From: Psammoneis japonica
Taxonomy: Eukaryota
Direction of reading: 5' to 3'
Assembly (NCBI GenBank): GCA_008632985.1
Contig: QPGO01000024.1
Coordinates: 449,848 to 513,847 of the forward strand
DNA: 64,000 nt
Position numbers and translations under genes: made by a program. The notes below the pieces were generated by a model. The model was not told the DNA's origin. It searched no databases and saw only the letters and a program-made list of their open reading frames with translations. The first letter of the stretch is position 1. Each line of letters starts with the position of its first letter. This document shows, in pieces, positions 3,601 through 64,000 of this stretch.

Positions 3601-3619
3601 CACATTTTTCTTGATGCAA

Positions 3620-36210: not shown

Positions 36211-36214
36211 CGCT

Positions 36215-36920
36215 GGGAATTTAGTGTGCATCAACTGTGGGGTCGTTTGGACACATGGGACACAATTCTGTTCTGCTCAAGGCATGGAAACAAAAATGCT
36301 GCCATTGGAAAGTGCTTGTTCTGCAGATGACATTGATGCTGTTTGTTGTTGCAAAACTTCCATTGCTTCTGGAGCAACACCTGGCTCATGATGATGTGCT
36401 GGGAATTTGGTGCACAACTGTGGGGTTGTTTGGATGTGTGAAAGAACTCTGATCTGCTCAAGGTGTAGAAACAAAAATGCCACCATTGGAAAGCACTTGT
36501 TTGACAGATGACATTAACTCTCTGTTTGTTGTTGCAAAGCTCCCATCACTTCTGGAGCAATGCCTGGCTCATGACAATGCCCTGGGAATTTGGCATGCAA
36601 CTGCGGGGTTGTTTGGATGCACAAAAGACAGTTCTGATCTGCTCAAGGCATGGAGACAAGAACACTGCCATTGTCATTCTGCAGATGACACCAACACTGT
36701 TTGTTGTTGCAAAACTCCTGTTGCTTCTGGAGCAATGCCTGGCTCATGATGACGCACTGGGTGTGAATTTGGCATGCATCTGTGGGGTTGTTTGGACACA
36801 TTTAAGACAATTCTGATTTGCTCAAGGTGTGGAAACAAAAATGCTGCCATCAAAAAGTGCTTGTTCTGTGGATGACATTGGCACTGTTTGTTGTTGCAAA
36901 ACTCCAATTGCTTTTGGAGT
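36215..36920. repeat. About 4 tandem copies of a ~183-bp unit
   Basis: Units start (gg)gaattt near 36215, 36401, 36584, 36766 and share ctgctcaagg, gatgaca, ctgtttgttgttgcaaa, cttctggagcaa, cctggctcatga. Confidence 0.95.
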
Positions 36921-43200: not shown

Positions 43201-44765
43201 CCACAGGGGCGCTGCCATCTGCTTGAAGAATTGCTCTGACCCATCAAGGGCTTGAGAGTTGCACAGCATCCACTCATCTGAAATCAACTCTGCTTTGTGC
43301 TCCAACCCACAAGCAAAAAGGAGTGAAACACTAGAACCATCCTGCCTGGGAAAGCATGATGGCAGATGCTGCAGCACTTTGGCTGCTTCTACAACAAAGG
43401 AGCGATGTGCAGAACATCATTTGGTGTGGCAAATGGAAATGAATCTTGACCTCAAGGGCTCTGTGGTTGCAGAAGAGTCATGCATGCATGGTTGCTCATC
43501 TTGGCACCAGTTGGTTGACTGACTGCTAAACACATGAAGCACTTGCTTGAGTGCCAGGAAATCAGACCTGCAAGCAGAAAAAAGAGCAGGCACTTGCCAT
43601 GTCAGTTCCCTCTTGGCACAAATCTAAACAGGGAGGTCAAGTTGGCAATGAGGATGAGTTGGCCAAGAGAGCCTTTTTTGGCATGGGTCAAGAAGCTTTG
43701 CACCCATGCCACAAGCAAGAGCAAGTGCCATCAAGCCAGCATTGCAGAAAACAGTTCAAAGCAGCACATTTGGCCTTGTGACATGGACAGCACTGGTGAT
43801 GAATGGTGTGTGGCAACACCATCAGGAGAGAAGTGCTAACACCCATTGCCATTGCCTTTGGTGCTCAGTGTCAACACAAACTTTGTGCCAACAGAAAGCT
43901 GGCTCAATCAAAATGGCATGCTTGGTGGCACTGTTGGAGCAAGCACACTTGGCAGAAATGCCAAAATCATGTGCACACTTTGTCAGATGCTGAGAACAAC
44001 AATGGCAATGAACTGCAGGAAGGCTCTCCTTTTCATGATGGCCAAGTCCCACTGCAAGATGTTGCACCCAGAGTGCCAAGTGCTGAGGTGTGCCTCCAAA
44101 GATGACAATGACAAGGGCAGCAGCAGCAACAAGAACAGACACCATCACAGCTGATTTGGCAGACAAAAGCTCTAAAAATGATGACAAAGCTCCACATCTT
44201 GTGCACCAGGAGTTGAGTGACCTCTCAAGTGTCAAATGCAATGAGGTTGATTCAAGTTGGCTTGTGTCTGATGCAGCTGCACTTTCCTCATTGCTCCAAA
44301 CAATTGATGCTGACTGGGTGAGATGTGGGTTGAGCACACACATTGCCCTCAACTCCACACAGCCACAGCTTTTTGACAACCCAGAAGCAAGCCCATTGCC
44401 TGGCATCCTGCACCCAATGCCACACAACCATCTTGCCAACAATGCAAGAAGCCCACTCAGGCATGGCCAATGCAGGCATCATCAAGCAGGTGCCATTTGT
44501 CAAGCAGCTGACTGACAATGAGAGTGTCTTCTGACAGTCCGCTGCTGCCTTCACAAGCACAAGGGCAAATTTTTGCACTGGGCAGCCAGAAGGAGCACAA
44601 AGTGCTGCAAAAGCAGCTGCCAATCCCAACTGCATTCCTGGCACTGTTGAGCAATCAAAGAGATGAGAAGCTCATCTCCCAGATGGCACCAAAAAACATG
44701 ACTGAGCATTGCCGTCCACCACTTGTTATGCTGCATGGAGGGCCAATGACAAAATGAATGAACGG

Positions 44766-45011
44766 AGTGCACATTTGCTTCTGGCAGGACAGTTTGCCCA
44801 ACTGGGTGAGCTCTTTGTCAAGCAAATGTTTGTCACTGTTGCTGTTGCCACACTTGGGACACCATGACAAGTTGCTGGCAGGCATGTCCACAAACAGAGT
44901 GCACATTTTGCTTTGCAGGCAGTTTGACTGGTTGTGAGCTTTTGTCAAGCAAATGTTTGCCACTGTTGCTGTTGCCACACTTGGGAGACACCAAGACAAG
45001 TTGCTGGCAGA
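44766..45011. repeat. ~130-bp tandem duplication
   Basis: gagtgcacattt ... tttgtcaagcaaatgtttg.cactgttgctgttgccacacttggga ... gacaagttgctggcag occurs twice. Confidence 0.9.
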
Positions 45012-45693
45012 TGGTGCAATGCCCCACAAAGTTCAAAAAATGGCAGCATTTTCCATTTGTGCTGTGGAGTGCTGTGACACAAAATTGCACAGCACACAAC
45101 TTGTCATGCCATCTGTCCTGGAATGCACAAGGGACATTTGCAAAAAAAGCATGTGCAAGGTGGGAAATCAAGCATGAGTCATTCAAGTGCATGTTGATGA
45201 AACAATGAGCAACACACATTGCCAAGTGCATTGTGGCAGTTGCCAAATGGCACTGCAATGGACAAAGTGCACCTTTTAGCACTTTTGGAATTCCACAGAT
45301 GTGGTCAATTGCACAATGGTGCAACAGCACTTTTGTGAAGGGAGAAGAGGCAACAGCAGAAACAGAACAAAGTGCAAAGACAAACAAGAGCCAACTGCAA
45401 GTCAAACATGACAACACACCACAAAATTGTTCTCAATCAAGCCCATGATGCTTGTCAGTGCATCAAACCACAGATGCTTTCCTTGGGCAAGTTAAAGTGC
45501 CAGCGTGCAATGTGATGAACCATCATGTTGGGAGATGAGACAACAATCAACCACAACAGTCATGAGCAAACACAAGAGTGCATGCTGCTGAATGTTGCCA
45601 TTGTTGAGTCAAGGGCATGACTGCACATCATGCTGCCATTTCTTCATCAGTTGGTGGAGGTCTTGGAAAAGTGCAGGGGCAATCATTGTGCAG

Positions 45694-45796
45694 CACCTGC
45701 TTGAGGTGCTGCTTTTGTGTTGCAATGATTGCACCAGAGGCAGCGCCACCTGCTTGAGGTGCTGCTTTTGTGTTGCAATGATTGCACCAGAGGCAG
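45694..45796. repeat. Exact tandem duplication, 53-bp period
   Basis: cacctgcttgaggtgctgcttttgtgttgcaatgattgcaccagaggcag at 45694 and 45747. Confidence 0.95.
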
Positions 45797-48204
45797 TGCA
45801 AAGAGTGTGCACTTGCCCATGCATGGGGAGATTGGGTCAGGAAAATCCAAGAACCTGTTGGCCAACAGATGTGGTGGTCATCATTTGACAAGGATCTCCT
45901 CTGTGGCAAGGGCTGGCACTCTGAAGAGAGGTGCCAAATCCTCAGGCACCTGCAATTGTCCCCCCACTCCCCAGCACTTGAAACAAAGAAAATGGTCAGA
46001 CATTGTTCCTCCCACACTTCAAGATGCTTTTGTCAAAAAAAAGAAACAAATTTGGGAAATGCTGTGCAACTTGGTGGCTTGCCAACATTGAGGCCATCAT
46101 GCTGATGCAGCGACAAAGCCAAAAAACTTGCTCAAACAAACATTGGCAAAGGAAGCAAGTGCTGCAAATGACAATTTTCATGTCAACCACAAACATCAGA
46201 ACAGATGAAAATGACAAGGCAGAATTGATTGTCATCATCAGTGTGAAGAAAAGTCCAACAGTGTTCCAAAAAGAAACAATGCAAAACCTGCCCCAGCTGT
46301 GTGATCAACCACTGTGGTGCATCTGTCACAAAAACTTGAGTGCAATGACCACAATGCTGGCTCCACTCATTCCAGTGGTTGCGCATCATGTCATTGCTGA
46401 TGCAAAAGATTGAACAGTGCACCAAACTCTCTCGTGAAAAAACACAATGTGGTGAGTGCAACCCAGCTGCCATTTTTGCTCCAGTCACAAAAGCACAGTG
46501 TTTTCTTTTGAAACAGCTTGTTGGAAAAAATGGCTTGAAATCTGTGAGGGGGATGAAGGCAAGAGGCAGGCTGGGCTGAAAATTGTGCAAAAACACACTG
46601 CGCACTGACTGCGCAGAGACTTCCATGCATGCAACATGACATCAACCATGCTTGCACAGTTGACCTCTCATCTCTTGAGCACTGGAGAATGTGGTTGTTG
46701 CCCTGTTGCACTTGGACGCAGTGCAGACAATCCATGACCATGATTTGAACTCATCCAAATCCAGCACACTTCTTGAGCATGCAGCACACTGTTGCAAAGA
46801 AAGCACTTTTTTCACATTTTGGATTCCTTGGTTTCACACAACAAAATCACAAGCCACTGACTTCTTCTGCACAAAGCGTTGTGGTGTCTGCTCTGTCCAG
46901 GCATGATGTGGAGGTTTGTCAAGAGCAAACCTGGATTTCATCCACTTCTGCCTCCTGAGAAAGCTGCAGCATGAAAAAATTCTTGCCTGGCATTGTTGAG
47001 TGTTGTGTGCTCAAGTGTGTTTGTGCATCATTGGTGGGCCACCTGGTGTCTCTTGCAATCCTGCTCCTGCTGCAAACTGTGCAGTGGCTTTTCAATTTTT
47101 TGTGTCACTGAGATTTCTTCAATGGCAGCCTGGAGTTGTGTTGGCTAATGCTGCCAGAAAAGGAGCTTGACTTCTTGCTTGAAAGCATTGAGAGATTTCT
47201 TAGAGTCCTTGGAAGAAAAATGAGGATGAGTGTTCCAACAAGAGCACTCATCTTTTGTGGGAACACAAGGAGAGTTGTGGCAACTGCAAAGCATTGCTCC
47301 AAAAAGATCCCAAGCTGGCAAGATGTGAGAAACATGTCACATAAAAAACACCAGGAAGACAGCTTCTCAAAAGACATGATTGCAGAGTTGGACTTGGCTG
47401 ACTTTGTTTAGAAGGCAGTTGGAGACAAGAGTGTGGGACATTTGTTTTGATGAACTCATGGCTTGCAAGGAAAAGCAGGGCCATTGCAATTGCCAAAAGA
47501 CTGGAAAAAGAAAACAAGAAGCTGGAAACCTCAGTCAACAACCAGCACACTGTCCATGGAAAAGTGGCCACAAAACCAGAGAGGTTGAACAAGCTCAACT
47601 TGATTCGCTTCACTTGGAAGAAAAGTGACCAACGTATTTTGGGGATGAGTTGTGTGCAACAGAGTTTGCAGCGCGCAAAAAAAAAAACCAGGTGCACACA
47701 CAGTCCCCAGTTCCACAGTCACTGTTTGTCTTTTGTGACTGTGTGCAACACCTTATGCTCGCGTTTATGCTCACGATGGTCTATGACTGGCGGCCTGCAT
47801 TGCTGTCCTACCCTTGTCCTTGGCTCACAGGACTTTTGATGGATCATTTAATCATAGATGGTCCGGGTCTACTAACTAGTTGCTTACGAGAGAAGCTTTG
47901 CTCTGTCAACGACCAAGTTGGATTGAGGAGAGCATGGGCTATTTTCTGAACTCAATGTACAATAAAAAAGGCAAAGGCAGCAGGGTCGATTCATGGACGT
48001 AGGGCCCTACATCAGAGCAAGAAGATTTACTCCAGCTAGTAGCCAGCCTCGCATGAGAGCTGCTCCATTAAAAAAAAAAAAATTGCCATCGATTGCTCTC
48101 CCCATTTGACAGTGATGATTCTTTAATTGTCTTAACTGTTTTTGCCATATATTCGATCGAACCCATCTGCTCCAAACAACGCCGTACAGCAAGCAAGACA
48201 ATCA

Positions 48205-49155
48205 TCACGAGACGTTCTCTCGTTGCAGCCTCTCCCGCATTTCCTCCAAAAGCTGCAGAACCAGATGTTTTGCCAGACCCATGACACTGTCTTGCGTGCC
48301 ATCGATATGTTCGATGTGTTTGGTCACCAGTGGGTGTTCCACCATGAGGCCACCAGCACAAGAAAGAATCGGGGCATCTTCGTCTCGAAGAAGATCGACA
48401 AGGTCTTTGCCATCTCCGTCAACAAGAGCCACAGATTTCTTAAAGTGTATGGTAGCACTGTCCACCCCAGATATTTGTATGCCACTTGGTACGTGTGTCA
48501 AAACGCACGCTCCAACAGTTTTGGGTGGGCTTTCAGCATAGCCTCTTATAAACTTCTTGGCTTCTTCGATCGATATCGGTTTTTCTAATATTCTATCTTC
48601 GTGTGTTACCACTTGGTCTGCAGTCAAAATAATCCAACTCTTCTCGCTATCGTTTGCTGGCATGTCTGACCGCTCGATCTCTCCAGAATTGATGAGTTGC
48701 ACCAAATGATTTCCCTTCGCCGTCGCAAGGGCTTTTACCAATGATCGTGCGTCTCCTTTCGTGCGATCTCCAATAGCATGCTCATCAATTGAGCGTACAA
48801 GCAGATGGAACTTGACATTCATTTCTTCCAGAATGAGTTTACGAGTAAATGATCCCGATCCTAAAATCAACGGCGACGGCAAGCCAAGCAAAGTAAGAGG
48901 ATCTTGAACGTTCTGCTCGTCAAAGCTTTCATTCGTTTCTGTTTGGCTTGAAAATGACATTATTTGCTGTTGTCGTGCTGCACGTGTTGCGGAAGTAGGG
49001 TTATTGTATATTTGTGAGAATCTATGGATGGACGTGCCACGAGAAAAAGCTGTTGCAACCGAGACAACGAGACAGCACACCAATGCACTCCGCTGAGTCC
49101 GTATTGACGAAGAAAGAAGGGAACCGTAGCTGTAACGACGAGGAAGACGGAGCAT
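48205..49155 (-). CDS. maf: Maf-family nucleoside triphosphate pyrophosphatase, probably organelle-targeted
   Basis: LILGSGSFTRKLIL, IDE, TADQVV, ILEKP, AGGLMVE, DSVMGL motifs; VATA-FS targeting-like motif. Start codon uncertain. Confidence 0.9.
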   Translation of the reverse strand: MLRLPRRYSYGSLLSSSIRTQRSALVCCLVVSVATAFSRGTSIHRFSQIYNNPTSATRAARQQQIMSFSSQTETNESFDEQNVQDPLTLLGLPSPLILGSGSFTRKLILEEMNVKFHLLVRSIDEHAIGDRTKGDARSLVKALATAKGNHLVQLINSGEIERSDMPANDSEKSWIILTADQVVTHEDRILEKPISIEEAKKFIRGYAESPPKTVGACVLTHVPSGIQISGVDSATIHFKKSVALVDGDGKDLVDLLRDEDAPILSCAGGLMVEHPLVTKHIEHIDGTQDSVMGLAKHLVLQLLEEMRERLQRENVS

Positions 49156-49338
49156 CTCGGCGACAAGGTGAGTGCTGTTGCATGGGAAAATGGGAACGCT
49201 ACCGACATAACCGACGCACCGCACCTCGAATCCGCTTCCCCCCGTGCGTCGTGTCGATGATTTTTGAAAATTCAATATATTCTACGTGCCTGAAGCTTTT
49301 CCGGTAAACCCATCTCTAATGAAAACCTTCATAGACTG

Positions 49339-49450
49339 ATGTTATATAACTTTTCCCGCCAAAACCAGTTACAGCAGCAACGTCAGGAGTTCAGTCCCCC
49401 TAAAATAATAAAGGAGGCCATCGAGAGCAAATTGTCCAGGACAATGGTCA

Positions 49451-49488
<38 letters not shown>

Positions 49489-50581
49489 GAAAAGCTGTTT
49501 CAGAAGCTTCAAGAAGTGATTGGATCGGATGTGGGAGATCGTGGCATGAAGAGCTTGATTGTGCAAGGCGACTTGCAGGAGGCGTGTTTGAAGCTCGCCA
49601 CGTTGCGCGAAGATTCCCAAGTTGTGGTCTTGTCTGGGTTCCCTTGCTGTGTCACGAACGACCCGCCCACAGAAACCGACGGTCCACCAGGAGCTGCAGC
49701 CATTTGCCGTGCGTTGGTGCAACTGCCATACAAAGTGACTTTGGCGACGGATGAGTGTAACCGGGCCGTTTTTGAGGCATCGTTGAAAACGGATGATAGT
49801 TCTTGGTCGTCGGGTGTTAAGCTCCAATGCTTTCCGAGCGTCAACTGTTGGACGAACGAAAGAGAAGAAGAACTGCATTCTCTAGTACGTACGTGCGATG
49901 CAATTGTGGCTTGCGAACGGGCTGGTCCTGCTGCTGATGGGCACTGCTACACAATGCGCGGTATCGATATGACGGAATGTCATCTCATTGCTCCCCTAGA
50001 TCGTATAGTTACGGAAACTCGTTCACGGAAAGTTCCGTTTATTGCGATTGGAGACGGTGGTACGTTCATATTATGTGAAAGATTCCTACAAAAACTCATG
50101 TTAGACAATTCACAACGAAAGCCATTGCATTCTGCTCTGTCTGTTTCAAACTGTAGGCAACGAAATGGGTATGGGAAAGGTACTCCGGCATATTTTGGAT
50201 AATCCGAAGATCCAGAACGCGTCCAAGATTGCATGCGTGGTGGCAGCGGACTATCTAATTGCTGCGAGTGTCAGTAATTGGGGTGGCTATGCGCTGGCGG
50301 CTGGTATAGCATACGTTGCAGCTCAACGAGAGTACTCAACATCTACGTCAAAGGAGAAGATGCTATCTCGCTTTGTCAACGAGTGGGTAGACCGTTTCCT
50401 TCCTACACGTAAAGAGGAAACTCAATTGTTGGATCGGTGTGTTGAAAATGGGTGCCGAGACGGGGTCAGCGGATTGAAAGAAGCCACTGTTGATGGCATG
50501 CCTTTAGAGACAAGCCTTCAATGCCTTGACGACGTCCGTCAAGCGGTGTTGCATTCTGTGGATCATGGCAAGGAGTTGTAG
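49339..50581 (+). CDS. D-glutamate cyclase-like protein (DUF4392); intron 50060-50156; polyQ tract near N-terminus
   Basis: D.G.RG, GFPC..PPTETDGPPGA, CERAGPAADG..YTMRG, spliced IGDGGNEMGMGKV, SVSNWGGYAL, DGV. Start may be 49339 or 49444. Confidence 0.9.
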
Positions 50582-50958
50582 CAAACATATTGAAGGTCAC
50601 GCGGAGAGTTCTAATCCATAATACCATAATATCTGTTTTAAAGAGCCGCGCAATTCCGTCGATTGAGATGCGTCAATGATTTCTCCATTATCAAAATTGA
50701 GACTAGGATGTCAACAATCACGGACAAGCTCAGCTCTTTCTATAAGGTCGCTATCCCTCGGACGGTTTCCCTCACCAGCAGCGCTATGGATTCTAGTTTG
50801 GACAGTGTGTGACAGAAGTGAGGAAGAGTCGCAACTAGAGAGTCAGAGGTCTTCAAGCTTTCCGATGAGCTGGTGAGTATCCGGATCTCGTTGCCACGTT
50901 AGGGGTGGCGGGAGCAATATCACCTCCCACGGGTCCCTCGAGACGTCAAAAACTAAGT

Positions 50959-52557
50959 TCATTTTTGTTCAGAAAATGGATATCTTGCAAAAACTTCATG
51001 CCCTTGCGGCTCGTCTGAACTCCCAACCAGTATACGTTCAACAGCCGCCCATGCACTCATAGCCCCTTGATCCGTACAGAGCCGCGCTGGAGGAACAAAA
51101 ATCTTCCAAGGTTCTGGTCTGTTGAAACAGAGAGCCTCCAACCGAGTCCGCAGCTCAGTATTGGCGGCTACTCCACCTACAACAGCAAGTTCCCTAATGC
51201 CGCAGTTTTCATCTTCCAATGCTGTCATGGCTCGATTCAATCGTTGTTCAATGTGTCAATAGCCACGTCTTGAAATGACGCTGCAATGTTTGCCTTGTCC
51301 TGATGGGATAAGTCCGAAACCGAGTCAACGTCACGTTCTTTTCGAAGCTTCTCTGCGGCAAGCATGACCGCAGTTTTGAGCCCAGCATACGAAAAATCGC
51401 AATCTTTACGTTTCTGCAGAGGAACTGGTAATGCCACCGCTTTTGGATCCCCGTCTTTCGCCAACCGTTCTACTGCAGGTCCACCACCGCCACCTACAGG
51501 CAAGCCCAAGAGTCTCGCTGTCTTATCAAAAGCTTCTCCTGTTTCGAATGAAAAGAAAGACTAGCAAATGAGCGAAATGATTTGTAGATACACATCAAGG
51601 ACCGGAGAGCGAACCCACGTAGTACGTACCCAACGAATCATCAAGCGTGCCCCCCATTATTGTGTATCGTCCAACCCCCATACACTGGAGGATTTGACAA
51701 TGTCCCCCAGAAACCAACAGGGCAAGAAACGGAAATTCTATGGCTCTCTCCAACTCATGAGTGGTTGACGTGGCTGGGGTCTGAATCATCATGTCCGTGG
51801 AATCGCCACTGGCAGCCGCTGGCATTCTCGCCATTAGAATATGTGCCTCCAAATGATGCACTCCAACAAAGGGTAGGTGATGCTTTATAGCCAAGTCGCG
51901 TGCCCTGTTGCATCCGACTCGTAGACATATTTCAAGACCAGGCCCTACCGTGACACCAATAGCATCCACCTGCGGTAGCGTAAGGTTTGCATTCTGCAGG
52001 GCCTCCGCAATGACTCGGTCAATCTGATCTTCGTGAGCGTCCCTCGCCAAGCCAGGGACGACACCGCCCCATTCCTCATGAATCTCATTCTGAGACGCTA
52101 GCGATTCACCTAATATGATACCGTCACTTGTAACAATCGCAGCCCCGGTGTCATCACAGCTACTCTCAATCCCCAGCACTGTGAAAGGTTTGGTACAATC
52201 TGGCAAACCAGACTTAGCTTCAAAAGAAAAGCCATCTGAGCCGCCCGGTTGATAAATATTTTTGAATTGACCTCGATCAACAGCCTTGGCCATTCCAATG
52301 AATTCGCGTCGCTTTTCCCGACTTGACTTTCCTCCACTTTTCCTTTGATGCATATTACTGGTCGAATTCACAGATGATACGTCGCTAATGTCCGCCGTCG
52401 AAGAGAGCAGGACCCGACTCGAGCCGACGAAGGCCGCTGGGGATCTTACTCGTGACGACACACACCAAGCTTTTCCGAGATGGCTGGCAGCCAAGAGCAT
52501 CGTGCTAACAGTCATGGCAATAAAACGGTGACTGATCACACGTGACTTGAGCGGCAT
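50959..52557 (-). CDS. tsaD: Organellar tRNA N6-threonylcarbamoyltransferase (TsaD/Qri7 family); intron 51629-51539; apparent 1-bp deletion near 51257
   Basis: LGIESSCDDTGAA, GGVVP..A...H, GPGL, VHHLEAH, LLVSGGH, TLDDSLGEAFDK, FSYAGLKT, GGVAAN, CTDQGAM. Confidence 0.92.
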
Positions 52558-53101
52558 GATCCGACAGCGTGCTATTGATGTTGGATGGGCTGTGCTTGAT
52601 GGAATGTTTTATGGTTGCCCTACAGAACGGCGTCAAAGTGATTTAGAAGTGGTGCCGACATACGCTCAAGGCTCGATGGCTTCGTCCTTTCTTTTCGCTC
52701 TGTCCTTCTTTCTCTGGATGAGCAGGTGAATTGGTGCCATTCACCATGGGCGGGCCGATGTTTCTTGGTGTTTGTTGTTGCTTGTTGCGGCAACGAACTA
52801 GCCCTACTCACTCGTATTGAGTGGCTCGGGGCATGTCTTTTGTGCGCGCATCGCGCGATCCAGTACTTTTTTGGCGCGCGATGGATGATGGACGTTTGAT
52901 CGACAGAGCTCAACTTCAACTTCGCCACGTAGTACACGATTCGCGTTGATTTCTACGCAACACCGTAACGACGCCATCCGACGATTTGAAGGACCGGGCG
53001 GTGTGAAACGACTGGCTTTTCTGACACCTTCTACATGGTACCGGTAGAGATACCATAGACTCACTTGCACAAACAACAAGCTCAACGGCGAGATTTCAAC
53101 A

Positions 53102-53761
53102 ATGAAGTGGTGCGGTGTGCTTGTCGTTTTGGTATTTTATACTGTCGATGCTTTCTCTCCATCACCTTTGTCGTCGATGCAACGCATCGCATGTCGGAAT
53201 ATCAAGTCGTCTTCATGTCGTCCGAGTCCTACAGCTTTTGTTGGACGGTTCGACCGACAGAGTGAACTCAACATGAAACTCTTGGACAGGTTTCGTAACA
53301 AAGAGAAAGGTACGGATGATAGTGAGGTGAAAGTGATGGAACCAAATGATACAGAGGCATCAGACGATGATGAAACGTGCATTGCTCCAGAGGATGTTGT
53401 TGAAAAGACGGAAACCGAAAACCTTATGGAACAAGTAAAGGAAGCCGGGTTAGCTGGTGTGATTAGTTACGCTCTTTGGGAGCTGGCATTTTGGGCTGTT
53501 TCTGTCCCAGTATGCGTTTTTGGTTACCGAGAAGTCACGGGACATTGGCCAGACTTTAATAATGCCGAAGACATGGAGAAGTTGGGGGCTGAAGCCTTTG
53601 CGTTTGTCAACTTTGCTCGGTTTGCCGTCCCTCTACGTATTGGGTTGGCCTTAAGCACAACTCCATGGATTGATGAAAACATTGTTCGAAGGTTCTTCAT
53701 GAAGGATGAAACGCCTGTCTGTGATCCCGCAGAGGAAACAACAGATGACGATGCCGAATGA
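53102..53761 (+). CDS. Conserved plastid-targeted membrane protein of unknown function
   Basis: Signal peptide plus VDA-FSP motif; hydrophobic core AGLAGVISYALWELAFW...ARFAVPLRIGLAL; normal composition. Confidence 0.8.
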   Translation: MKWCGVLVVLVFYTVDAFSPSPLSSMQRIACRNIKSSSCRPSPTAFVGRFDRQSELNMKLLDRFRNKEKGTDDSEVKVMEPNDTEASDDDETCIAPEDVVEKTETENLMEQVKEAGLAGVISYALWELAFWAVSVPVCVFGYREVTGHWPDFNNAEDMEKLGAEAFAFVNFARFAVPLRIGLALSTTPWIDENIVRRFFMKDETPVCDPAEETTDDDAE

Positions 53762-54309
53762 ATCAGAATATGACAGAAAGATGAGTTGAGAGGCAAGGCG
53801 ATATTAATTATATCGCTGAGACTGAGCGAATACTGACAGTTTGCGTTGTCACATAGTGTAGTAGCTTTCAGCCCAGCTCAAATCCCTTCTACTGTAAAAC
53901 GCCACAGCCAGCTATGTGGTTTTCCTATGCCTCCTCGCGCCCCAAGTGTGCGACATTCTCAGAAATACCTTTCCACTCTAGAGCAAAGTAGGAAACAAAT
54001 AGCTCTCAATGGAGCTAAACGTATTGATTGACGGTGAACTTCTGTGGCTAGCTTGAACATTGAGACAAGAGATAGTAGCAACCAACAAAACTCTATGTAT
54101 CCAAGCCGATGGGAGCCTCTGCTCCAAGCAGTAAGCACTTTGGGGCGTAAAGTACTTTGGATTACATGGAGGGTGGAGTGGAAAACGCACTAAAAGAATA
54201 CAAGTGGGAAGAATACCCAAGCGGGAAAGAAAGAAACATCTTCGAGCTCGATGTTTTGGAGCTCGATGGTTGATCTGAATCATCTGCTCTTTTATTTGCG
54301 CAATAATCC

Positions 54310-55131
54310 ATGATGTCCATGATTTCCAACAGGTTGGTGGCGATGACGATGACACACGCGCGCCCAAGGAACCTCATACAGTACTTTTGCAAGAAGATCA
54401 TAATGATTCCTATGCAACTCAGGTGCACCAACGTTCTCATCCTTTTCGTCATCACGCTGTCTGTCGTCGCCGCAGAAAGATGCTTCTTTGGAACAACGGC
54501 GGCCTTCGTTTCCGTACCATCTCGATCGCAGCGCTCGCCGATCCGTCTAATGGCGGCGCTTGGTGATCCAGTTTGCCACTATCGGCAAGTCCCCATAGAA
54601 ACGTCCCAACGAGGACCACCGAAGCAAAAGATCAGTGTTGAAGACTTAACTCCCACTGTAGCATCACTTCTGGAGGAAAGTGGCATGCAGAATGGGGTTG
54701 CTGTTGTAATCAGCAGGCACACGACCACTGCTGTCACGATTAACGAACGTGAAAATCGGCTAGCGCAAGATATGGAACGTTTCTTTCTATCACTTGCGCC
54801 TCCCGACGAGAGATCTTCCTCTGAGGCAGCAACGGCGGGAGTCGCATATTTTCATAATGACATTGACAAACGGCCTGACGGAAAAGAGGAGGCACAACGC
54901 TGCCTCGATAATGGCTGGAACATTACGGATCCAGTAGTGCTCGAAAGGTGGCGAGCGCAGGAACCAATCAACGCACATTCACATCTACTCTCTATGCTTC
55001 TCGGGAGCTCAGAGAGTATCCCAGTTGTGGACGGCAAGATGGTAATCGGTCAATGGCAGAGTATCCTGCTCGTGGATCTTGATGGCCCACGCGATAGAAC
55101 CGTCGGGATTCAGTTCCTTGGTCACAAATAG
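54310..55131 (+). CDS. yjbQ: YjbQ/UPF0047 family protein
   Basis: SRHTTTAVTINERE, NAHSHL, GQWQSILLVDLDGPR.R; true start probably at a downstream Met (about 54412). Confidence 0.9.
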   Translation: MMSMISNRLVAMTMTHARPRNLIQYFCKKIIMIPMQLRCTNVLILFVITLSVVAAERCFFGTTAAFVSVPSRSQRSPIRLMAALGDPVCHYRQVPIETSQRGPPKQKISVEDLTPTVASLLEESGMQNGVAVVISRHTTTAVTINERENRLAQDMERFFLSLAPPDERSSSEAATAGVAYFHNDIDKRPDGKEEAQRCLDNGWNITDPVVLERWRAQEPINAHSHLLSMLLGSSESIPVVDGKMVIGQWQSILLVDLDGPRDRTVGIQFLGHK

Positions 55132-55619
55132 CAATCTGTTGGTCAAACGAAATCCTATCTTTTGCTTTCTTAAGCCTTACGTTTGTACACATAGATTTGC
55201 CCACGACGATGATTCTGTCACTTCCTACAGTCTTTGATCCGTAGGGAAGAAAGGAAATGTAAGAATCGAATGATGGCATGGCTTTTATTTCGTCGACGGT
55301 GTGTTGGTCCAGTGGCTCTACTTTAGACGTCCTCGCGACAATTGACCAAACAAGAATTAAACTACCCACGTTGCTTCGACTACAAGACATAGCATATAGG
55401 AGCTGTGTTCCTGCACTTATAACGTCCTCTTCTAGAAGCAATCTATGAATTTGAACTGTTGAGAATCTTGCTCTCTCTCGTCGGGACACGTCAAAGCTAC
55501 CCTTGACTATTTCTCTGCGATCTGCCATGAGCATCGTTGCATGCTGTAATCCAATACAAGGTATTGAGGTCGGTGATACCTCCTCGTTGCACAATCCCGT
55601 GGTTGTGTTTGTTCCGAGG

Positions 55620-58600
55620 CTAAGCCCACTGGGGACCTTTATCCTTATTGTTCTCGGACCACTCACGTGGAAGTTGTGATATCATCACTCGTGGCTTTCT
55701 TACTCGAGCAGTTTCAGGAATCTCGTCCAGAGCAGGGGCGACAAGTGCCCGGTATTGATCACTTGATGCAGATTTTCGAAGTCTATCTAAAACGAAATTG
55801 CTCAGTTTTCCGTTCTCACAGCAAATGTTGAAAGCTCTTTCAACATTGGATTCTCTCACATCTCTAGGGAGTGACAGTCGTCCGGCAGCCTCGATGAACC
55901 AGCCGAATGTCAGACTTGACGGCTGCATACTTTCTGACGCAACTAATCGATCAAAAATTGACCGAGCTACGAAGAAGGACTTATTCTTCTCTCTGGCATG
56001 CCCATTTGCGAAAGCACATGTGTTAATGACCAGGGCATATGCGTGTTCATTGCGTTCAACCTTCTTGTTTCCCTGGCGGTGCTGAGATTCCATTCTACGT
56101 AGAACCCCAAGGGCCCTTTTTATCTTCTCGCGTTTGCCGCTTCTTGACCAAGTAGAAAGAGCCAATCCGTAGCTTCGCGTTTCTGGTTGCATTTCTTTCA
56201 CTCCTGAAGCATACAGGGATTCCATTTCCTCTAACCTCATGTCGACCCGTTCTCCTGCATCCTCGTGTCCAGATAAGGACCATGCGTGCATCACGGCATT
56301 CAAGGTGCTGGAGTCAGGGCGCAATCCAGGAATTTCACCCTCATCGCAGAGGCGCCTCATAACCTTCAGGAGACGGTCGGCTGCTTCCCCAGCATCAGCG
56401 TTTTTGCTATAGGCGAAAACTTCTATGACGGATTCGAACGAAAAGTTGTTGGGAGCCAAGCCGTCGTAAGCCGTTTGCTTGTAAAGAACTAACATTCGAT
56501 TCAAGAGATACTCCGCACGGTAAGGAAAGTCTGGAGCCTTGTCCCTCGAGAAGCGATAAAACCCAATGATGTGGTTGAAACACCTAGCGTCGGGCGAGAC
56601 TTCGGGATTTTCGACCTCGCAGTATTCAATTAAGCGTTCTAGGATTGCTTCGGCTCGTTTACCATTCCCCTTAGCTTTCGTTTTGGTCCATGCGCTGATG
56701 GCAGCGTTGAAGGTAAATGCGTCCGGCGCCGCGTCTTTGTCGCCCTGGTTGTACAAGTTAAGCATATAGTATAGCAATTGTTCTGCCCTTTCTGGGTATT
56801 TTCCCCGCGTCAAACAGTCCATGACAGCATTGTATGTTCTACAATTGGGCTTCACGGCCGGGTAACCCTCTTCATGGCGATGTATCATGTGCGAAAGAAT
56901 TTGGGCACATCGAGCTGGCGCAATCTTTTGCCCACTTTGCGCCCATGTGCTACACAAAATAGTATAGTGATAAACATCGGGTGGACTATCAATGTCACCG
57001 TTCTCATACAATTCTTCCATCTCCCTCACAAGTCTGTCACCCTTTTCTGGTTCGATTGTCCGTTGATAGCACGCAAGAACTGCTGCATAGCTGTAAATAT
57101 CTGGTTTGGTATTTGCCCCCTCCTGGTGCATCTTATACATACGATGAAGCAAATCATGTGCAGCCTGTGCGGCATCAGGTCGTCCTGATCGCGAATATGC
57201 GTTCAATACCATGTTCCAGCTTCGAACGGTGGGACGAAGCGATTCCTGACCATCAGCAGCATATGCTTCCATGCGGTTTACAATAGCCATGGCACGATCC
57301 ACTGCCCCGATTTGTCCAAGTGATCGAAGTACACAATTGAATGATTCGAAATCTAACTCCACATTTGCTGGAGCGGCGCTTGAAATTTCTCTTTTTCGCT
57401 TCAGCTCCTCCGTTGCCCGTGCTTCCAACCGTTCTAGAAGAGACTCTGCACGTTCAGCAGCTTTGGTGGAGTTGCTGCATCTGACGGCCGTAAAAATTGT
57501 CAATGAATAGCTTAGACGATCGGGTTCCACGTCATAACCGCCTTCACTTACATCGAGCTCCATTCTTTTCAGAAACTGCTCTGCTTCATCTATCAACTCG
57601 TTATCGGGACTGTTGCAGAAGGCACTGATCATGGCGTTGAAGTTAATAACATTCGGTTTCAAAAGCGCATCCTCGCCCCCCTCGTACGAATCAAACATTT
57701 GCTGCAACACTTCCATTGCCTTGGAAGCGGAATCTGGCAAGCCGCTCCTGGCGTAGACGGACTGAAGCGCCGAGTAAGAGTAGACATTTCTCTTCACTTT
57801 AAGTTCATCCATCATGTCGAAGAGTTCCTGAGCGCGTTTAGCTCGATTTGGAGACTTGCATCTTCCATAGCAGTCAATCAAGGAGGAGAAAGTGACACTA
57901 TCTGGCTTCATATTTTCGTCTCCGGTCATTTTGTACGATTCCATCATGTCTCCAAACGCCTTTTCCGCCATTCGAGCTGCCACATCGGGTTCACCAGCTT
58001 TAGCCCACGCATTAATAAGAGTATTGTAGCTCACGTTTGACGGTGCTATCGCTTCATCGCCGGTTTGCTTGTACATTTCAACCATACCATCATGGATGTG
58101 CTGTGCGCGTTGTGCCACACCCTTCTGTCCAGATTTCGCCCATGCATCAATTGCCTTTCGTAAGAGGGAAGTAACGACGCCTACAGGTGAGCTACACTTG
58201 AAATCTTAAGTACAATAGTAGCCAAAAGGTGATTCACAACAAGGCTTACCATCGTGTAGAGACGCGTAGAAACTTCTATGCTTTTATTCCCTTCTCGCAT
58301 GTCGTCTACTACGCGTTTCCTTTTCACGGGGGGCACCGAAAATAACCGAAAAGAACCAAAATACTGAATTAGCAAGGATGAAACGAAGATAGATGCAACC
58401 ATAACAAGCGAAATACCAATATCGCACTTACAGCAGCTTTTCTACCACAAGAGCAGCATCAACTGATTTCCTCTTCGCCCATGCAGTCATGATTCCTGCA
58501 ATGGTGTCAACGTCATCCATAGTCAACGATCCCAACGGGAACTTTTCAAAGTCTAAGATGGCCTCAGTGCCTTGTTCCAACCATTTTTTGTTTCTTTCCG

Positions 58601-58814
58601 AGAACGACGATGAAGGGGACTCTTCCAAAAAAGACTCATCTAACCCTTCGAAATCATGAATGAATTCCTTGTCAACAGAAACAGCGATCTTCGTTGATCT
58701 ACTCACAAGAAAAGTTCTATACCCCACAATGGAAGCGGCTCGACCTCCATAGGTAAAACTTACTGCGAAATCTCTATTCAATATCGCACTTAAGGCTACC
58801 CAGCGAATGAACAT
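55620..58814 (-). CDS. Pentatricopeptide repeat protein; exons 58814-58432, 58319-58250, 58154-55620
   Basis: Many P(D/N)xxSY/TFNxxIxAWxK repeats; two GT-AG introns keep the frame (KLL-KRVV, YTM-AIDAW). Confidence 0.92.
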
Positions 58815-59189
58815 AGTTGTGATACATCCATCCAGAGCCCAACTCTCTCTCTCTCTCCCTCACTCTTGCAACGCCAATAACAGCAGCATTATTTCTGTTT
58901 GGGTGTGCGATATAGCATCCAGCATCCAGCGCACGCAAAAGCAACGCACGCAAGGAGAATCCTCATCGCAGTGTGGCAGTCTGTCTGTTTCTAGCTACGC
59001 ATCGCGTGTTACTGTATTTTCTACTTTGGTCCGTCGATCCGCGAGCCGCGACCAGACATGCAGCCAGCCAATGGTGCGGAATGCACCATTGATCCAGCCG
59101 TGCTCTCTCTCCAACGTGAGTCTCTACTCTAAGCCAGAGCTGCGGTGCTCTCTGCTCCACTCTAAGCCAGCTAGAGAGGGCCCTGGAAC

Positions 59190-62100
59190 ATGGCATGCAT
59201 CTGCCGTTCTCTTGTTCGAGTGCTCACACACACCCGAAGGTCACAGCACGCAACAAATGCCAGTGCACATGCCCGAGACAGAGGAGAGTGGGACAGATCC
59301 ATTGATCAAAAAAGGTCTGATCTAGATTGCCAGCAGCATGTCAAGCAAGAGAAGTGCGCGCAATTGCATGCACACATGTGTGTGCCAACAGTGCAGACAG
59401 TGGGGGAGGTGCTCTCTGCGTGTGTTGCGCCGCTCCTGTGCATTTTGTGCTCGCCAACGGCTGCGCCACATGCACCGCACCATGGCAGATTGCAACCCTG
59501 AGCACCTGACAGCACAGCTGGCCATGGTTGACCACAGCAAGCAATGCATGAAAAGGAGCTGCAAAAGCACCAGATGATTTTGTGATTTTCAGAGTCAAGC
59601 CCCAGCGCCCAAAAGCTTGCTTTCTTTGCCACTGGACCTCTCCTTGAGGCACACAGCACATTGTCAACATCATCCACAGTGCCAGCTCAACATGAAACCA
59701 GAAGATGTCAAGCACACATTTGTGTGCTCAGCTCATGAAGGCTCTGTTGAAAAGCTGCAGACCCAGTGCACTCTGCACCAGATTTGGGAGAGGTGCTTGT
59801 GTGGCTGCTCAACTCTCTCCAGTGCGCTCTCTTTGTCTCACATGCCAAACACAGCATTGAGTTTGTCAAGGAAATGTTGCAAAAGAAAAGTGCTGCAGTG
59901 AAAACAAAAGGTCAACACACACCATCCTGGAAGGTGTTTTTTGGAAAGCTGGGTGTGTGTCACTCTGTGCTGGGCCCAAAAGAGCTTGAGAGAGACAGAG
60001 CTGCAAACAATGCTGCAAATGTTGTTGCAGGTCTGCCTGCAATTGGCTGACAGCACTTTGCAGTGCATGAAAGGGGAGCCCAAGTGATGCCATTTCAATG
60101 TTGCACTGCACTCAGGTTGGCCCAGACTTGCAACAATTTTCTCCACCTTTCAAGTGCTTTTGCAGAGCCAGCAAACACTTCAATGAGGGTCATCACAAAA
60201 CATGAAACAGCTGCAAGGGCCTCCAACTGCTCTCCCCAGCTTGATTGTGCAACTTGTTTGTTGTTGAAGCTGTGATGTTGGTGTGTGTGTTTCTGGACTC
60301 ACTGGAGAGAAAACATGACAGCTGCTGGCAAGGAAGCTGAGCCAGAGCCAAAGGTTGCTGCACTGCAAGAAGAGCTGCTTCATCTGCCTTGTTCAAAGTG
60401 GGAGATGATGAACAACTTCAAAAGCACCAGAGAGAGGAGTTTGGCATCAAGAGCATCCTCCAAAAAGAGCTGCCCACAAAAGAGAAAGTCTTGGAGCTGG
60501 CTTTTCATGTGTTTGAAAAACAGAGCTGAGATGAAAACAATGCTGTGGTGTGACAATGAGTCTGTCTCAAAGTGCCCCAAGAATTTGCTGCATGGCAGTG
60601 GTCTCTTGTGGATTGCAAGAAAGAAACTCAGTCAGGTGAACAGAGAGGCACCAAAGCAGCATTGAGTTGCCTTCTCAGAGACCAGCTTTTCTTTCTCATC
60701 AATCACAGAAGTTGCGCAAGCAGTCAAAGAAGCATTGACAGCAAACAAGCTGAGGCAAGCAACTGCTCACATGACTCAACTCTGTCTGGCAGGGATGTGT
60801 TCTCAACACGCAGGCTGTGCCGCCAATGTGCAGAGTTGCTGCCCAAAGAGCAAGGTGCACAGCACCCTTCCTCTCTCATTTTTCAAGCAAGCTCCTGCCC
60901 CTTGATCCTGACAAGCACGGCAGTGCACAACCAAATTGTGCACTCTCTTCTCCTTTGCACCAACCAGTGTGCAGTGCATCCGAGATGCAAGACTTGACAA
61001 GGAGACCACAAAATTGTCAGGCACACTGCAATGGTGCAGCATCTGCATGACCCTGGCAGATGAACACTTTGGTAGCTGCCTCATTCCCAGTGGGGTGCAA
61101 ATGGCCAAACAACAAAGAGAAAAATGGAACTTGCCATCCCATGTTGCGCCGTTCAGTGTTTTTGTGGTTGCACAATGATTCGTTGGGTTGCTTGTGTTCA
61201 ATGCTTGTCATGTGCAGTTGCGGCAGGTGTGTGTCTGTCAATGTTTTCTGTGCAATCTTCTTTCTTCTTGCATGGGCACGGGCACACACACGGGTGCCAG
61301 AAAAAACACTGCCATGCTTCCCACCCTTGGCAATGCATTCACTCCACCCAACTTGCTGCAAACATCAACAGCCTTCACACCACCTGCGCCCGAGTCACTT
61401 CCTCCCTTCCTGTCACATCTCTCACCCCTGAACACATGGAACTCATCAAACAACTCCACCCACTGCACAAACACCTGCCCCTTCCTTCAACTCCATCCAC
61501 CCGACATCACCGCCCTGCCTCCACCCCTTTACACTTCACCACGGATGACCTTCAGAAAGCACCAGCCAAATGCCAGCCTGGCAAAGCACCAGGGGTGCCT
61601 CTGCCAACTCCACCGACCTGTTAAAAGCCTGCACCCTTCACCATTGCTCTGTGCCAACATTTTTCTCTCACCCTTGTCTGCTTGCTTTTAAGCAACTCCT
61701 CAACCTCATCCTTGCCGCAGACATCCCCACATCTGTCAAGCCTGCTTTCTCATCCAACCACTTCCTCACCCTGCACAAAGACAAATCCATCCTCTCTAAA
61801 CTCTGCCCAATCGGCATCGGCACTGCCTTGTGACGGATCGTCTGCACCCTCATCATGTTCCTTCTTGCCACCACCTTTGCTGCCAACCTCCTCCTCTCTG
61901 GCCAATTTGGAGTTGGTGTCAAAGGCGGCCTCATCGAACATTTCTTCTAACCTGAATCTACACCAACAAAGGCTCTCCCACTCCTCGACCTCTCCAACTG
62001 TTTCAATGAATGCTCTCACAACACTTGCCATGACACCCTTGTCAACTCAGAGGAATGCCATTCCATTGCACCTTTCTTCAACCCACTTCATCACAACCCC

Positions 62101-64000
62101 ATCACCTGTTGGCATCAAGACCATCACCTGCAATGGTCTTCCTTTTCTCAACCCAAAGGATTTGCCCAAGGCTGTCCCCTGAGCCCCGCCTTTTCCTGCC
62201 TTGTCCTCTCCCACACATTCAAGCCCATCAATGACGAGCTGCACCATCAGCTTCCTCCCCACTCCAAATCTGCCACCTCATCATGTGTTGACAACACCCA
62301 CACACTCCCCCCCCCCCCCCCCCCTTTTTTCAACTCCCTTGGTTCCTCAAGCGCCTTTCTCCTCTTGGCCCTCAATTTGGAATCAAACTCAATGCATCCA
62401 AAACCAAAATCCTTGTGTCTGCGTCCGGCACCTCTCCCATCAACTGCCTCCCACCTGCCAATGCTCAGGCCCTCTCCAAAGCCCTCTCCTTTCTCAATCC
62501 CACCAATGACCCACAGGGCAAACCTGAACTCACATCCAGCATCCGCTTCCTCGGCCAACCCATCGGCTCCTTCACCTTCGCCATCAACTTCCTCCACAAC
62601 AAAGCCATTTCCTTTGCCACAGACCTCCTGTGCCTCACCGACCGCCTCACCGACAAACAAACACAAAGCACCCTGTTCCGCACATGCTCCATCCCCTCTG
62701 TCACCCACCTCCTTGCAGCTGATGCATGCTGCAATCTCAAGCGCTCCAATGACTTTTCAAACCCCCCCCCCNCCCCCCCCCCCCTCTCCAATGGGCATCT
62801 CCTTTTGTTGACAAGGTCATCGGCCACTCCCTGCATTTCCTTGCTCATCTCATTGAACACACTGCTCCTTGCCCTCTGCAGCCAAACTCATTGCCAACCT
62901 CCCTGTTTCATTGGGTGGCGTCGGATGCTGAGACATCTCTGCTGTTGCCATCCCTGCCCTCATCACCTCCCTTGCAAGATCAATGTGCCACACCAAACAC
63001 ACGGCATCCCACTCACCGGTGGTGATGTTTTTCATCTTCCTTTGAGCTGCTCTGCTGCTCTCAGCTCATGGTCTAACCCATGCTCCACCCTTGTTCCTTT
63101 TGTTGCATTTTCCACCACTGTGCTCCCATCCTCCTCCGATTTGACTCTTCCTCCTTCACCTTCCTGACACATGCTGTTGAACACCACAACCCACAAGGCC
63201 CACCGCAACGCCTTCACCTGTGTCGCCACCAAACCAACACTCTCCCTCAGATCCTTGCTGATCCTTCCATGCAACCTGCCCTTCTGTCCCTTCCATCTCC
63301 ACCAACAAGCTTGTGTCTTCACTCCTTCTCCCAAACTCCCGCCACCAACCGTCTCCCATCACATGTTTTCATGCTTCTTCTTCTCCGCAAACTGTGCCTT
63401 CCAACAATTTCTTCCACCTTTCTCCAACATGACTGCCCATGTGGCCACGCCCACCCAGACCCTCATAGAGACCATGCTTTTGAATGCTCCAAAATGCACA
63501 AAAGCCCACTGTCAAACCATGTCCGCGACACTGGGTGTCTGCACTGTCATCAAAACACTGGGCCCCCTTTGTGGCCTGTGTCTCTCCCGCCAACAAGTTC
63601 ATCTCAACCCAGCTGGTCTTTGGCTGATCACCCCCTCAAACGCCCCGCCAATGTTGGCATTCAACTCACCCCTGGCTCCACCACACCTGATGCTCCATCT
63701 GCCCACCACTTCGTGGCCATTGATGTCAATGTGGTGCCACCAGCACCCCGGCCTCCTGCATCTGGTTTGCCTGTCTCTGAAAACCCATTGAGCAAGGCTC
63801 ACCTCAGCAGCGCACAGGACAAGCTGCTTGGTTGCTCTGCACCATCTGCCCCAACTTCGATGTCATCGACGCCATCAACCAAGCCAGACTTTTCCTTCTC
63901 TCTTTTGCAGCATTCGACCATCTTGGTGGAATCAGGCGTCATTTTCACATTTTCTTCTTCGGCACCTCCACCTCAACATCCGCCTCCATCCCACCCCTTC
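59190..64000. other. TpA/CpG-eroded repeat domain F
   Basis: Abrupt loss of TpA after about 59190, continuing to the window end. Confidence 0.9.
61450..64000 (+). mobile_element. Degenerate non-LTR retrotransposon reverse transcriptase, CRE/SLACS-like
   Basis: PGKAPG, LHKD...KLCPIGIGTAL*R, GQFGVGVKGG, LLDLSNCFN, GFAQGCPLSP, CVDN (in place of YxDD), RFLGQPIGS. Confidence 0.85.

Follow-up and report, generated by a model that had tools for sequence, protein, structure and literature searches.

What silenced the reverse transcriptase (RT) near the right end of a 64,000-nucleotide stretch of Psammoneis japonica DNA (assembly GCA_008632985.1, contig QPGO01000024.1, positions 449,848 to 513,847 of the forward strand; hereafter the window, in whose own coordinates all positions are given), and is the damage to its catalytic box an event of its own or one trace of something that befell the surrounding DNA? 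The sequence belongs to a retrotransposon of the type without long terminal repeats (non-LTR), and it reads C-V-D-N at motif C, the position of the catalytic Y-x-D-D. Our reading, which we hold at a probability of roughly 0.8, is that this is a dead non-LTR copy that decayed by two transition processes, CpG to TpG/CpA and TpA to TpG/CpA, in a sharply bounded domain. The observations behind it are the identity of the element, its lesions, the polarity of the changes, the domain structure, and the dinucleotide balance.

On homology, which settles the question, the stretch is a real reverse transcriptase, beyond chance resemblance. A read-through translation of 61600-62310, with X at its two stops, matches long eukaryote-type proteins (P0003 at E = 2e-44, P0004 at 1.5e-38, and P0005 at 6.2e-28), and an exhaustive HMMER search with this query returned 296 cluster representatives at E<=1e-3, 94 at E<=1e-10, and 11 at E<=1e-30; in cluster look-ups and in the profile search, all relatives lack an informative name, being listed as 'hypothetical protein' or as nothing. 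The Pfam domain RVT_1 (PF00078) matches the window piece alone weakly (E = 5.6e-4; 20.1 bits, with a cut-off of 29.6), in an alignment that stops short of motif C, and is present in nine of ten long relatives, in seven at or above the cut-off and in two slightly below it, with no match in the tenth. Among solved structures, which sample few clades, a profile of 26 relatives has R2 proteins as the top four of six matches (E from 6.8e-10 to 2.7e-5, with 9nl3 at 6.8e-10 and 9dou at 9.6e-10), in the RT part only, followed by 8c8j, an 'RNA-directed DNA polymerase', at 7e-5. The RT family is common in marine and other eukaryote-type contigs.

The first-pass annotation of this DNA had described the region as an RT in which CVDN replaces Y-x-D-D, and both the relatives (E = 2e-44) and a comparison by alignment columns support it. 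The codons TGT GTT GAC AAC at 62284-62295 (+) lie in the frame of base 61300, which also holds KLCPIG (61798-61815), TAL*R (61822-61836, with TGA at 61831), LDLSNCFNECSHNTCH (61984-62031), and GFAQGCPLSP (62158-62187); its coordinates are all correct. That description depended on alignment to an RT domain at this very motif, and the family profile ('sylDDts') does align there with the YADD of 'AYADDLVLL' in the R2Bm structure 8gh6. For the column comparison, the window pieces were aligned with 44 relatives, each of at least 800 aa. The first column of motif C holds Tyr in 30 of these, Ile in 6, Phe in 3, Val in 2, and Trp and Ser in 1 each, with one further residue unlisted; the second holds Met (13), Val (13), Ile (8), or Leu (6); and the third and fourth are each Asp in 44/44. 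An active RT has Y-x-D-D with both catalytic Asp residues, and the window copy has C-V-D-N.

Judged by its domain content, the copy is a dead non-LTR element with an RT, then a CCHC motif, and then an E-PD-D-K module in a formerly single long open reading frame (ORF), as laid out in Table 1. In tblastn searches, P0004 residues 188-975 fall on 61331-63727 and P0005 residues 618-886 on 63086-63925; the ORF is interrupted by four frame changes and three in-frame stops (TGA at 61831, TAA at 61948, and TGA at 62929), and the window ends within it. The length of the C run at 62307-62324, and hence the frameshift there, is uncertain because a short-read contig ends exactly at the run. The Cys, Cys, Asp, His, and Cys columns of the CCHC region are held in 39, 39, 37, 39, and 36 of the 44 rows and are invariant in alignment A3, which comprises the C-terminal sequences of 29 relatives. 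E84, P97, D99, D118, and K151 are invariant in A3 as well, and the Glu, first Asp, and second Asp of the endonuclease core are present in 37, 35, and 37 of the rows that have a residue there. The order of RT, CCHC, and then the E, P-x-D, D, and K columns is invariant in the 29 relatives and recognisable in the window; the endonuclease is assigned by this motif pattern, and its fold is putative. Upstream of 61331 there is no similarity to the family, as 281 ORFs from relatives' loci gave no match to 58001-61400, and blastn returned only the self match, with no further copy within the window. In 61076-64000, as in the other TA-poor domains, TAA and TAG are nearly absent, and long open frames overlap in several frames and on both strands, for example at 61951-62811, 62292-63167, and 62247-62756 (minus).

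Table 1. Features of the window, those of the decayed element first (O/E, observed/expected ratio)
Feature	Position	Strand	Remarks
TpA/CpG-depleted domain holding the element	59324..64000	.	sharp left edge; runs off the window end
Decayed non-LTR retrotransposon ORF	61331..63925	+	five frame pieces; 3' end beyond the window
Frame pieces of the ORF	61331-61591, 61594-62298, 62340-62741, 62860-62985, 63086-63925	+	tblastn, ten relatives
RT N-terminal motif KLCPIGIGTAL*R	61798..61836	+	one Arg column now Cys (TGC at 61804), another now stop (TGA at 61831)
RT motif A region LDLSNCFNECSHNTCH	61984..62031	+	catalytic Asp intact (GAC at 61987); Met now Cys; two Arg columns now His
RT motif B KGFAQGCPLSP	62155..62187	+	conserved Glu now Lys (AAA at 62155)
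RT motif C, CVDN in place of Y-x-D-D	62284..62295	+	TAT to TGT (TpA); GAC to AAC after C (CpG)
18-C run at frame change between motifs C and D	62307..62324	+	identical short-read contig stops at 62324
RT motifs D/E and following region (FGIKLNASKTKILV ... FLGQPIGS)	62340..62741	+	other frame; tblastn 37-48% identity, 10 relatives
Second C run (10 C, N, 12 C) at next frame change	62762..62784	+	N at 62772
CCHC motif 3' of RT	63434..63485	+	C, C, D, H, F, C retained
Putative restriction-like endonuclease core	63605..63724	+	Glu now Gln (CAA at 63605); Asp of R-P-A-D now Asn (AAT at 63650); second Asp intact (GAT at 63722)
1109-aa open frame	7351-10677	+	TpA O/E 0.54, CpG 0.88; no Pfam match
Gene cluster of ordinary composition	47336-59323		
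Maf-like	48208-49281	-	
D-glutamate-cyclase-like, two exons	49294-50199 and 50105-50578	+	
TsaD-like, at least two exons	51598-52608 and 51240-51560	-	
UPF0047	54307-55128	+	
PPR protein, 861 aa	55623-58205	-	frame ends about 1.1 kb short of the TA-poor edge

Each deviating codon of motif C, KLCPIG, and TAL*R lies one transition from the family residue (TAT to TGT, C/GAC to C/AAC, CGC to TGC, and CGA to TGA), the ancestral codons being those favoured by parsimony. The active site had been described as destroyed by exactly two changes, one from TA to TG and one from CG to CA. Both substitutions hold up, the first at TpA and the second at CpG, each a single transition from the family state, but their role as the knock-out is not supported: with three stops, four frame changes, 58 of 198 conserved columns altered, and the endonuclease Glu/Asp pair hit, they are two among many lesions in the copy. 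KLCPIG and TAL*R were rightly attributed to CpG transitions, both CG to TG, at columns that are Arg in 41/44 and 40/44 relatives. In motif A, the columns are Asp in 42/44, Met in 40/44, and Arg in 41/44 and 36/44, with the two His residues arising by CGC to CAC and CGT to CAT (CG to CA); in motif B, the Glu, Gln, and Gly columns are held in 41/44, 43/44, and 44/44. The change from TA to TG, which the first-pass annotation had seen and left unexplained, is not CpG decay but belongs to a second, rarer process. Reverting the transitions would not restore the ORF, since the frame changes four times and one stop, a TAA, sits at a variable column.

The window covers 198 well-conserved columns of the family, agreeing at 140 and differing at 58; 47 of the differences are single-step and 11 require more steps. 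The single-step changes include 21 CpG transitions (16 CG to CA and 5 CG to TG) and six TpA transitions (4 TA to CA and 2 TA to TG), set against expected shares, among all transitions possible in the coding DNA of eight relatives, of 0.08-0.13 for CpG and 0.04-0.07 for TpA. The excess of CpG transitions at these columns has P of about 1e-9, and the surplus of CG to CA over CG to TG is expected because a dinucleotide placed as NNC/GNN alters the amino acid on its G side only. Not one of the 778 codons is for Tyr, which makes up 2.5% of residues in 50 relatives (P = 2.8e-9), and the copy has more Cys and His and less Arg. At the 11 columns with Tyr in at least 30% of relatives, the window reads His five times and Cys, Leu, and Phe twice each, and at eight conserved Arg columns CpG transitions have left Cys, His, Gln, or a stop. 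As TAY codons are the only ones for Tyr and CGN codons underlie most of the family's Arg columns, the comparison with the 44 relatives shows the direction of dinucleotide change, and the first-pass inference that TA and CG were lost gains independent support from the missing Tyr and the eight Arg columns. Both strands were hit, since Tyr columns became His (T to C) five times and Cys twice.

This composition is not a trait of the RT family, to judge from 80 relatives elsewhere that are without it. The window copy has a TpA O/E of 0.06 and a CpG O/E of 0.38, with eight TA in 2670 bp, whereas the coding DNA of 37 relatives ranges over 0.43-0.82 for TpA and 0.61-1.26 for CpG, and the 80 whole loci over 0.45-0.85 for TpA with a lowest 1-kb window of 0.29. 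The C-rich, G-poor sense strand of the copy (C 0.40, G 0.14) is common to the relatives, irrespective of the contig on which they lie (37 coding regions with G at 0.12-0.20).

The depletion extends well beyond the element, and the composition of the window is bimodal with sharp domain edges. There are 14 TA-poor runs, totalling 28285 of the 64000 bp, with TpA O/E of 0.02-0.10 and TG and CA at 1.3-2.1, and in 12 of these CpG O/E is also low (0.06-0.39), the exceptions being 1-681 (0.55) and 25880-27059 (0.77). Four blocks are almost free of TA (4-11 per run), with few CG and roughly doubled TG and CA (1-6892, 19733-23378, 32983-47335, and 59324-64000). At the left edge of the last of these, TA is spaced at a few tens of bases as far as 59323 and is then absent from 59324-61072 (1749 bp), and CpG is dense to 59476 and sparse beyond; its runs at 59426-61648 and 61923-64000 have TpA O/E of 0.02 and 0.04, CpG of 0.18 and 0.39, and TG of about 2.0. 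The host-gene and other DNA between domains has TpA O/E of 0.5-0.7 and CpG of 0.75-1.03, and the intergenic segment 10700-16500, outside the domains, has gene-like frequencies of 0.036 for TpA and 0.055 for CpG.

The dinucleotides lost and gained balance almost exactly when 29568 bp of depleted domains are compared with 33252 bp of normal domains. TpA falls from 0.0366 to 0.0033 (a change of -0.0333) and CpG from 0.0518 to 0.0100 (-0.0418), a combined -0.0751 that matches the rise of CpA+TpG from 0.1536 to 0.2284 (+0.0748), while G+C stays the same (0.485 in normal and 0.484 in depleted DNA). GpC is raised and ApT lowered in the depleted domains, as expected under TAC to TGC, GTA to GCA, TAT to TGT, and ATA to ACA. 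Pfam scans of ORFs from the TA-poor domains (85 of at least 110 aa, and 147 more of 70-109 aa) and of 59 ORFs of at least 100 aa elsewhere found no RT, RNase H, or integrase outside the element, and the 'Gypsy element' mentioned in the first-pass annotation finds no support in these scans, which returned no LTR-element domain.

Of the 98 TpA dinucleotides that survive in the depleted domains, 67 lie in the context Y-TA-R (TTAA 25, CTAA 20, TTAG 14, and CTAG 8), and the same four contexts make up 240 of 1218 in normal DNA; ATAC, ATAT, and GTAC have no survivors at all (0/83, 0/71, and 0/85). These survivors suggest loss of any TpA that is followed by a pyrimidine on one strand or the other, and T-A-pyrimidine is exactly the form of the Tyr codons. 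Survival of CpG is better in S-CG-S than in W-CG-W.

Other copies of the element could be read from the contigs of DNA run X1, which may itself be the source of the assembly. Among the sequencing runs covered, this one, from 2019, is alone in containing the stretch, and no RNA run is listed for it. The run contains 0.92 of the sampled words of 59000-62770, and its contigs show 0-1 differences from the window, with one among the 2074 bases of 59000-61073. Depth over most of 59000-61015 is that of a single copy, about 61 (bins of up to 87 are few), and over the RT the summed depth reaches 751, with 71 contigs of 80-100% likeness, so that further copies of the element exist in the genome. Between these copies and the window there are 138 transition and 30 transversion differences, and the dinucleotide states are known for 40 of these 168 places, the motif C positions 62285 and 62293 not being among them. 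At the 40 listed places, seven dinucleotides pair CA in one copy with TG in the other, and therefore decayed independently from an ancestral CG or TA; six are CA/TG in the window and CG in other copies, and four the reverse; TA is present in another copy at none. At 62155 and 62538, the other copies have the G of the CG state, as the column analysis had predicted.

We propose that both processes ran almost to completion in the domain and that motif C was hit once by each. The same two processes would have removed all Tyr codons, turned Arg into Cys, His, Gln, or stop, and struck the endonuclease Glu/Asp pair; as hypermutation or decay of silenced, non-genic DNA acts across the whole domain, loss of the catalytic Asp would be a by-product and not a distinct event. 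The CpG loss may have arisen as 5-methylcytosine was deaminated in methylated repeat chromatin, and the TpA loss through an enzyme-driven, TpA-specific A-to-G process acting on DNA, like that of the alga Bigelowiella natans, with T-A-pyrimidine as the preferred target that the flanks of surviving TpA suggest. By analogy with that alga, the TpA part may be a targeted, enzyme-driven defence of the same kind, a proposition to which we give slightly less than an even chance. The fuller version, a genome-defence-like erasure of TpA at the DNA level in non-genic domains, aimed at T-A-pyrimidine, sparing only Y-TA-R, and running alongside CpG decay, is likewise put forward tentatively, with the odds leaning a little against it.

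Plain old age, under which the element and the TA-poor stretches are old neutral DNA at ordinary mutational equilibrium with no targeting, is the most ordinary of the alternatives, and we consider it improbable. CpG decay is commonplace in old repeats, the other TA-poor domains carry no recognisable coding remnants, and the TpA O/E of genes is itself only 0.5-0.7; yet the copy retains 140 of 198 conserved columns and 35-48% identity with about nine-tenths of its expected TpA gone, the intergenic DNA at 10700-16500 keeps gene-like TpA and CpG, the edges are as sharp as the TA-free stretch past 59323 (1749 bp), and an equilibrium reached across the genome would not give a bimodal composition. 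It is far less probable that the transcript was edited from A to I by an ADAR-like enzyme with a 5' U preference before reverse transcription and was inserted already hypermutated. The sense-strand change from TA to TG at motif C (TAT to TGT) is what A-to-I editing after U would give, and ADAR is described, in the available text of the B. natans preprint, as preferring U before the edited A (10.64898/2026.01.13.699255), but the changes of Tyr to His (five) and of Tyr to Cys (two) show both strands to be hit, and the TpA loss reaches 2 kb upstream into mostly single-copy DNA without similarity to the relatives (281 ORFs, 0 matches) and includes some 24 kb of other domains in the window; the CpG loss, moreover, would go unexplained.

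The least probable account, by a small step, combines composition, selection, and artefact: the family might avoid UpA and CpG in its RNA, or modified bases might have caused errors in sequencing or assembly. The sense strand is indeed C-rich and G-poor throughout the family, and the long C runs and the N hint at a difficult assembly, but relatives keep their Tyr (2.5%) and a TpA O/E of 0.43-0.85, the stops and frameshifts mean that coding selection is gone from this copy, and the contigs of run X1, though it may be the source of the assembly, agree with the window at 0-1 differences.

Several points nevertheless weigh against decay by two processes in a bounded domain, or against its targeted form. 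The excess of TpA transitions at conserved columns (6/47) is not significant (P = 0.11), so that the case for TpA loss is carried by the absence of Tyr and by the dinucleotide counts; and because TA density itself served to draw the domains, independent values come from CpG and CA+TG alone, with an 'ancestral' composition that is a proxy borrowed from neighbouring normal DNA. Five of the seven changed Tyr columns became His, although the proposed TAY rule would favour Cys on the sense strand. TpA loss and CpG loss are separable, since the run at 25880-27059 (TpA O/E 0.05, with 3 TA in 1180 bp; G+C 0.53) keeps its CpG at 0.77. Apart from the element, Pfam finds no transposon or virus domain in any TA-poor domain, and these domains are not recognisable repeats of each other even when coded as purines and pyrimidines, as in direct and inverted self-comparison only local tandem arrays exceed the shuffle maximum of 108 bits. 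With the flank mostly single-copy and no such domain or repeat partner, targeting of what is 'repeat' or 'foreign' is unproven. Long C runs whose length is uncertain coincide with two of the four frameshifts, and for the C-terminal domain a profile search returned nothing from the PDB at E<=10 and nothing consistent from Pfam.

A mutated YxDD box in a dead retrotransposon is routine on its own, and its use here is as a polarised marker. Through it, an oddity of composition in about 44% of the window becomes evidence for a pair of directional, domain-confined processes, and the main interest lies in this domain-wide erasure of two targets, TpA and CpG, more than in the element. If the reading is true, TpA hypermutation would extend from the viral inserts of one alga to transposons, to a far larger share of a region, and possibly to a second organism, and the T-A-pyrimidine preference would be the first sequence-context rule for the enzyme behind TpA loss; the Y-TA-R survivor rule and the coincident CpG loss would then be handles for finding the enzyme and its guide. 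For annotation, systematic rewriting of Tyr and Arg codons means that homology searches miss transposons and viral inserts in such genomes, and the disappearance of TAA and TAG stops gives long false ORFs in all frames and false gene calls.

The remainder of the window holds host genes and repeats. Genes in bins of normal composition, several of them split by introns, encode PPR, Maf, TsaD-like, D-glutamate-cyclase-like, UPF0047, and DnaJ proteins, and the 1109-aa open frame probably represents a host gene from a family not recognised. Next to the run at 25880-27059 lies a 116-bp tandem repeat (27148-27369), and a tandem array of 183-bp units (x3.8) lies at 36232-36919 inside a TA-poor domain. 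The segments 12853-13973 and 29691-31899 are internally repetitive, most clearly in purine/pyrimidine coding, and are of normal DNA. The region 28001-32000 (+) is C-rich like the RT element (GC skew -0.17 to -0.20) with normal TpA and CpG, and its 233-aa ORFs match neither Pfam nor the RT family.

Among known elements, the closest are the R2-type long interspersed nuclear elements (LINEs) with a restriction-like endonuclease (RLE), in which, in the available text, an RT is followed by CCHC and then by PD-(D/E)XK (PMC4838377). The order RT, CCHC, E-PD-D-K is this architecture, with a putative endonuclease; the best solved structures are R2 proteins, and motif C corresponds to the YADD of R2Bm. 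The differences are that PDB matches are confined to the RT, the C-terminal domain having neither a PDB nor a Pfam match, that no N-terminal zinc fingers were identified, and that Rfam detects no family in the window and no rRNA, snRNA, or spliced-leader gene beside this copy or in 19 relatives' loci with flanks, a result to be read with the caveats that the host's own leader gene may be outside Rfam and that the element ends are undefined.

The CRE clade, to which the first-pass annotation pointed and which comprises CRE1/CRE2, SLACS, and CZAR of trypanosomatids, is also of RLE type with a C-terminal endonuclease, and its elements insert site-specifically in spliced-leader RNA genes. Membership is at most a candidate placement: no named CRE protein is present among the 296+54 matches, all without an informative name, and the only pointers are the R2 structure matches and an Atlas neighbour cluster of P0004 with Euglenozoa members, in taxa too thin for use. 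A dinoflagellate connection was considered and found no support, as a dinoflagellate spliced-leader word gave one match with two mismatches and chance gives the same in 35/100 shuffles. Taken by itself, the element is ordinary, a dead LINE whose family is of RLE type and lacks annotation.

Methylation-driven CpG decay shares with the window the changes of CG to TG and CA (21/47) and the low CpG O/E (0.06-0.39, with about 1.0 in genes), but it cannot explain the TpA loss, and one TA-poor run keeps its CpG. Fungal repeat-induced point mutation (RIP) resembles the window in its regional, transition-only hypermutation, its inactivation of transposons, its dinucleotide signature, and its sharp edges, and the process seen here, if targeted, would be its adenine-directed counterpart. 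RIP is, however, described in the available text as C to T, mostly at CpA, raising TpA and A+T (PMC2621366), whereas in the window TpA is erased (O/E 0.02-0.10), CpA and TpG are raised, and G+C is unchanged (0.484 vs 0.485). C to T at CpA, a TpA excess, and AT-rich domains are not what is found here, and with a flank at mostly single-copy depth a dependence on duplication is not supported.

The nearest parallel is B. natans, and literature searches yielded no report of TpA-directed hypermutation besides the 2026 bioRxiv preprint by Mettrop et al. The available text of that preprint describes a roughly 1000-fold hypermutation in mutation-accumulation lines, only in two integrated viral regions and all TpA to TpG/CpA, together with 124 TpA-poor, CpA+TpG-rich clusters across the genome, TpA-poor genes with a mean TpA of 0.0018 that are enriched for RT, endonuclease-RT, and DDE domains, and an ADAT2-like adenine deaminase as the proposed enzyme; transposons are named there only as potential targets (10.64898/2026.01.13.699255). 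The window likewise has clustered TpA depletion with a matching gain of CpA+TpG and TpA to TpG/CpA changes on both strands, and TpA frequencies are similar, at 0.0018 in the TpA-poor genes there and 0.0033 in the depleted domains here, with ordinary genes at about 0.04 in both. As far as the available text goes, the systems differ in that the preprint's cut-offs mark 5% extremes there and are passed by 33 of 64 1-kb windows here; that 'CpG' is absent from that text and is lost in the same domains here; that transposons are no more than potential targets there and a retrotransposon supplies the polarised evidence here; that flank context, not discussed there, is seen here as Y-TA-R survival; and that mutations were observed de novo there, where the window offers a sequence signature alone. 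Relative to that same text, the window adds the coincident loss of CpG, polarised evidence from a retrotransposon, sharp domain edges, and a flank preference.

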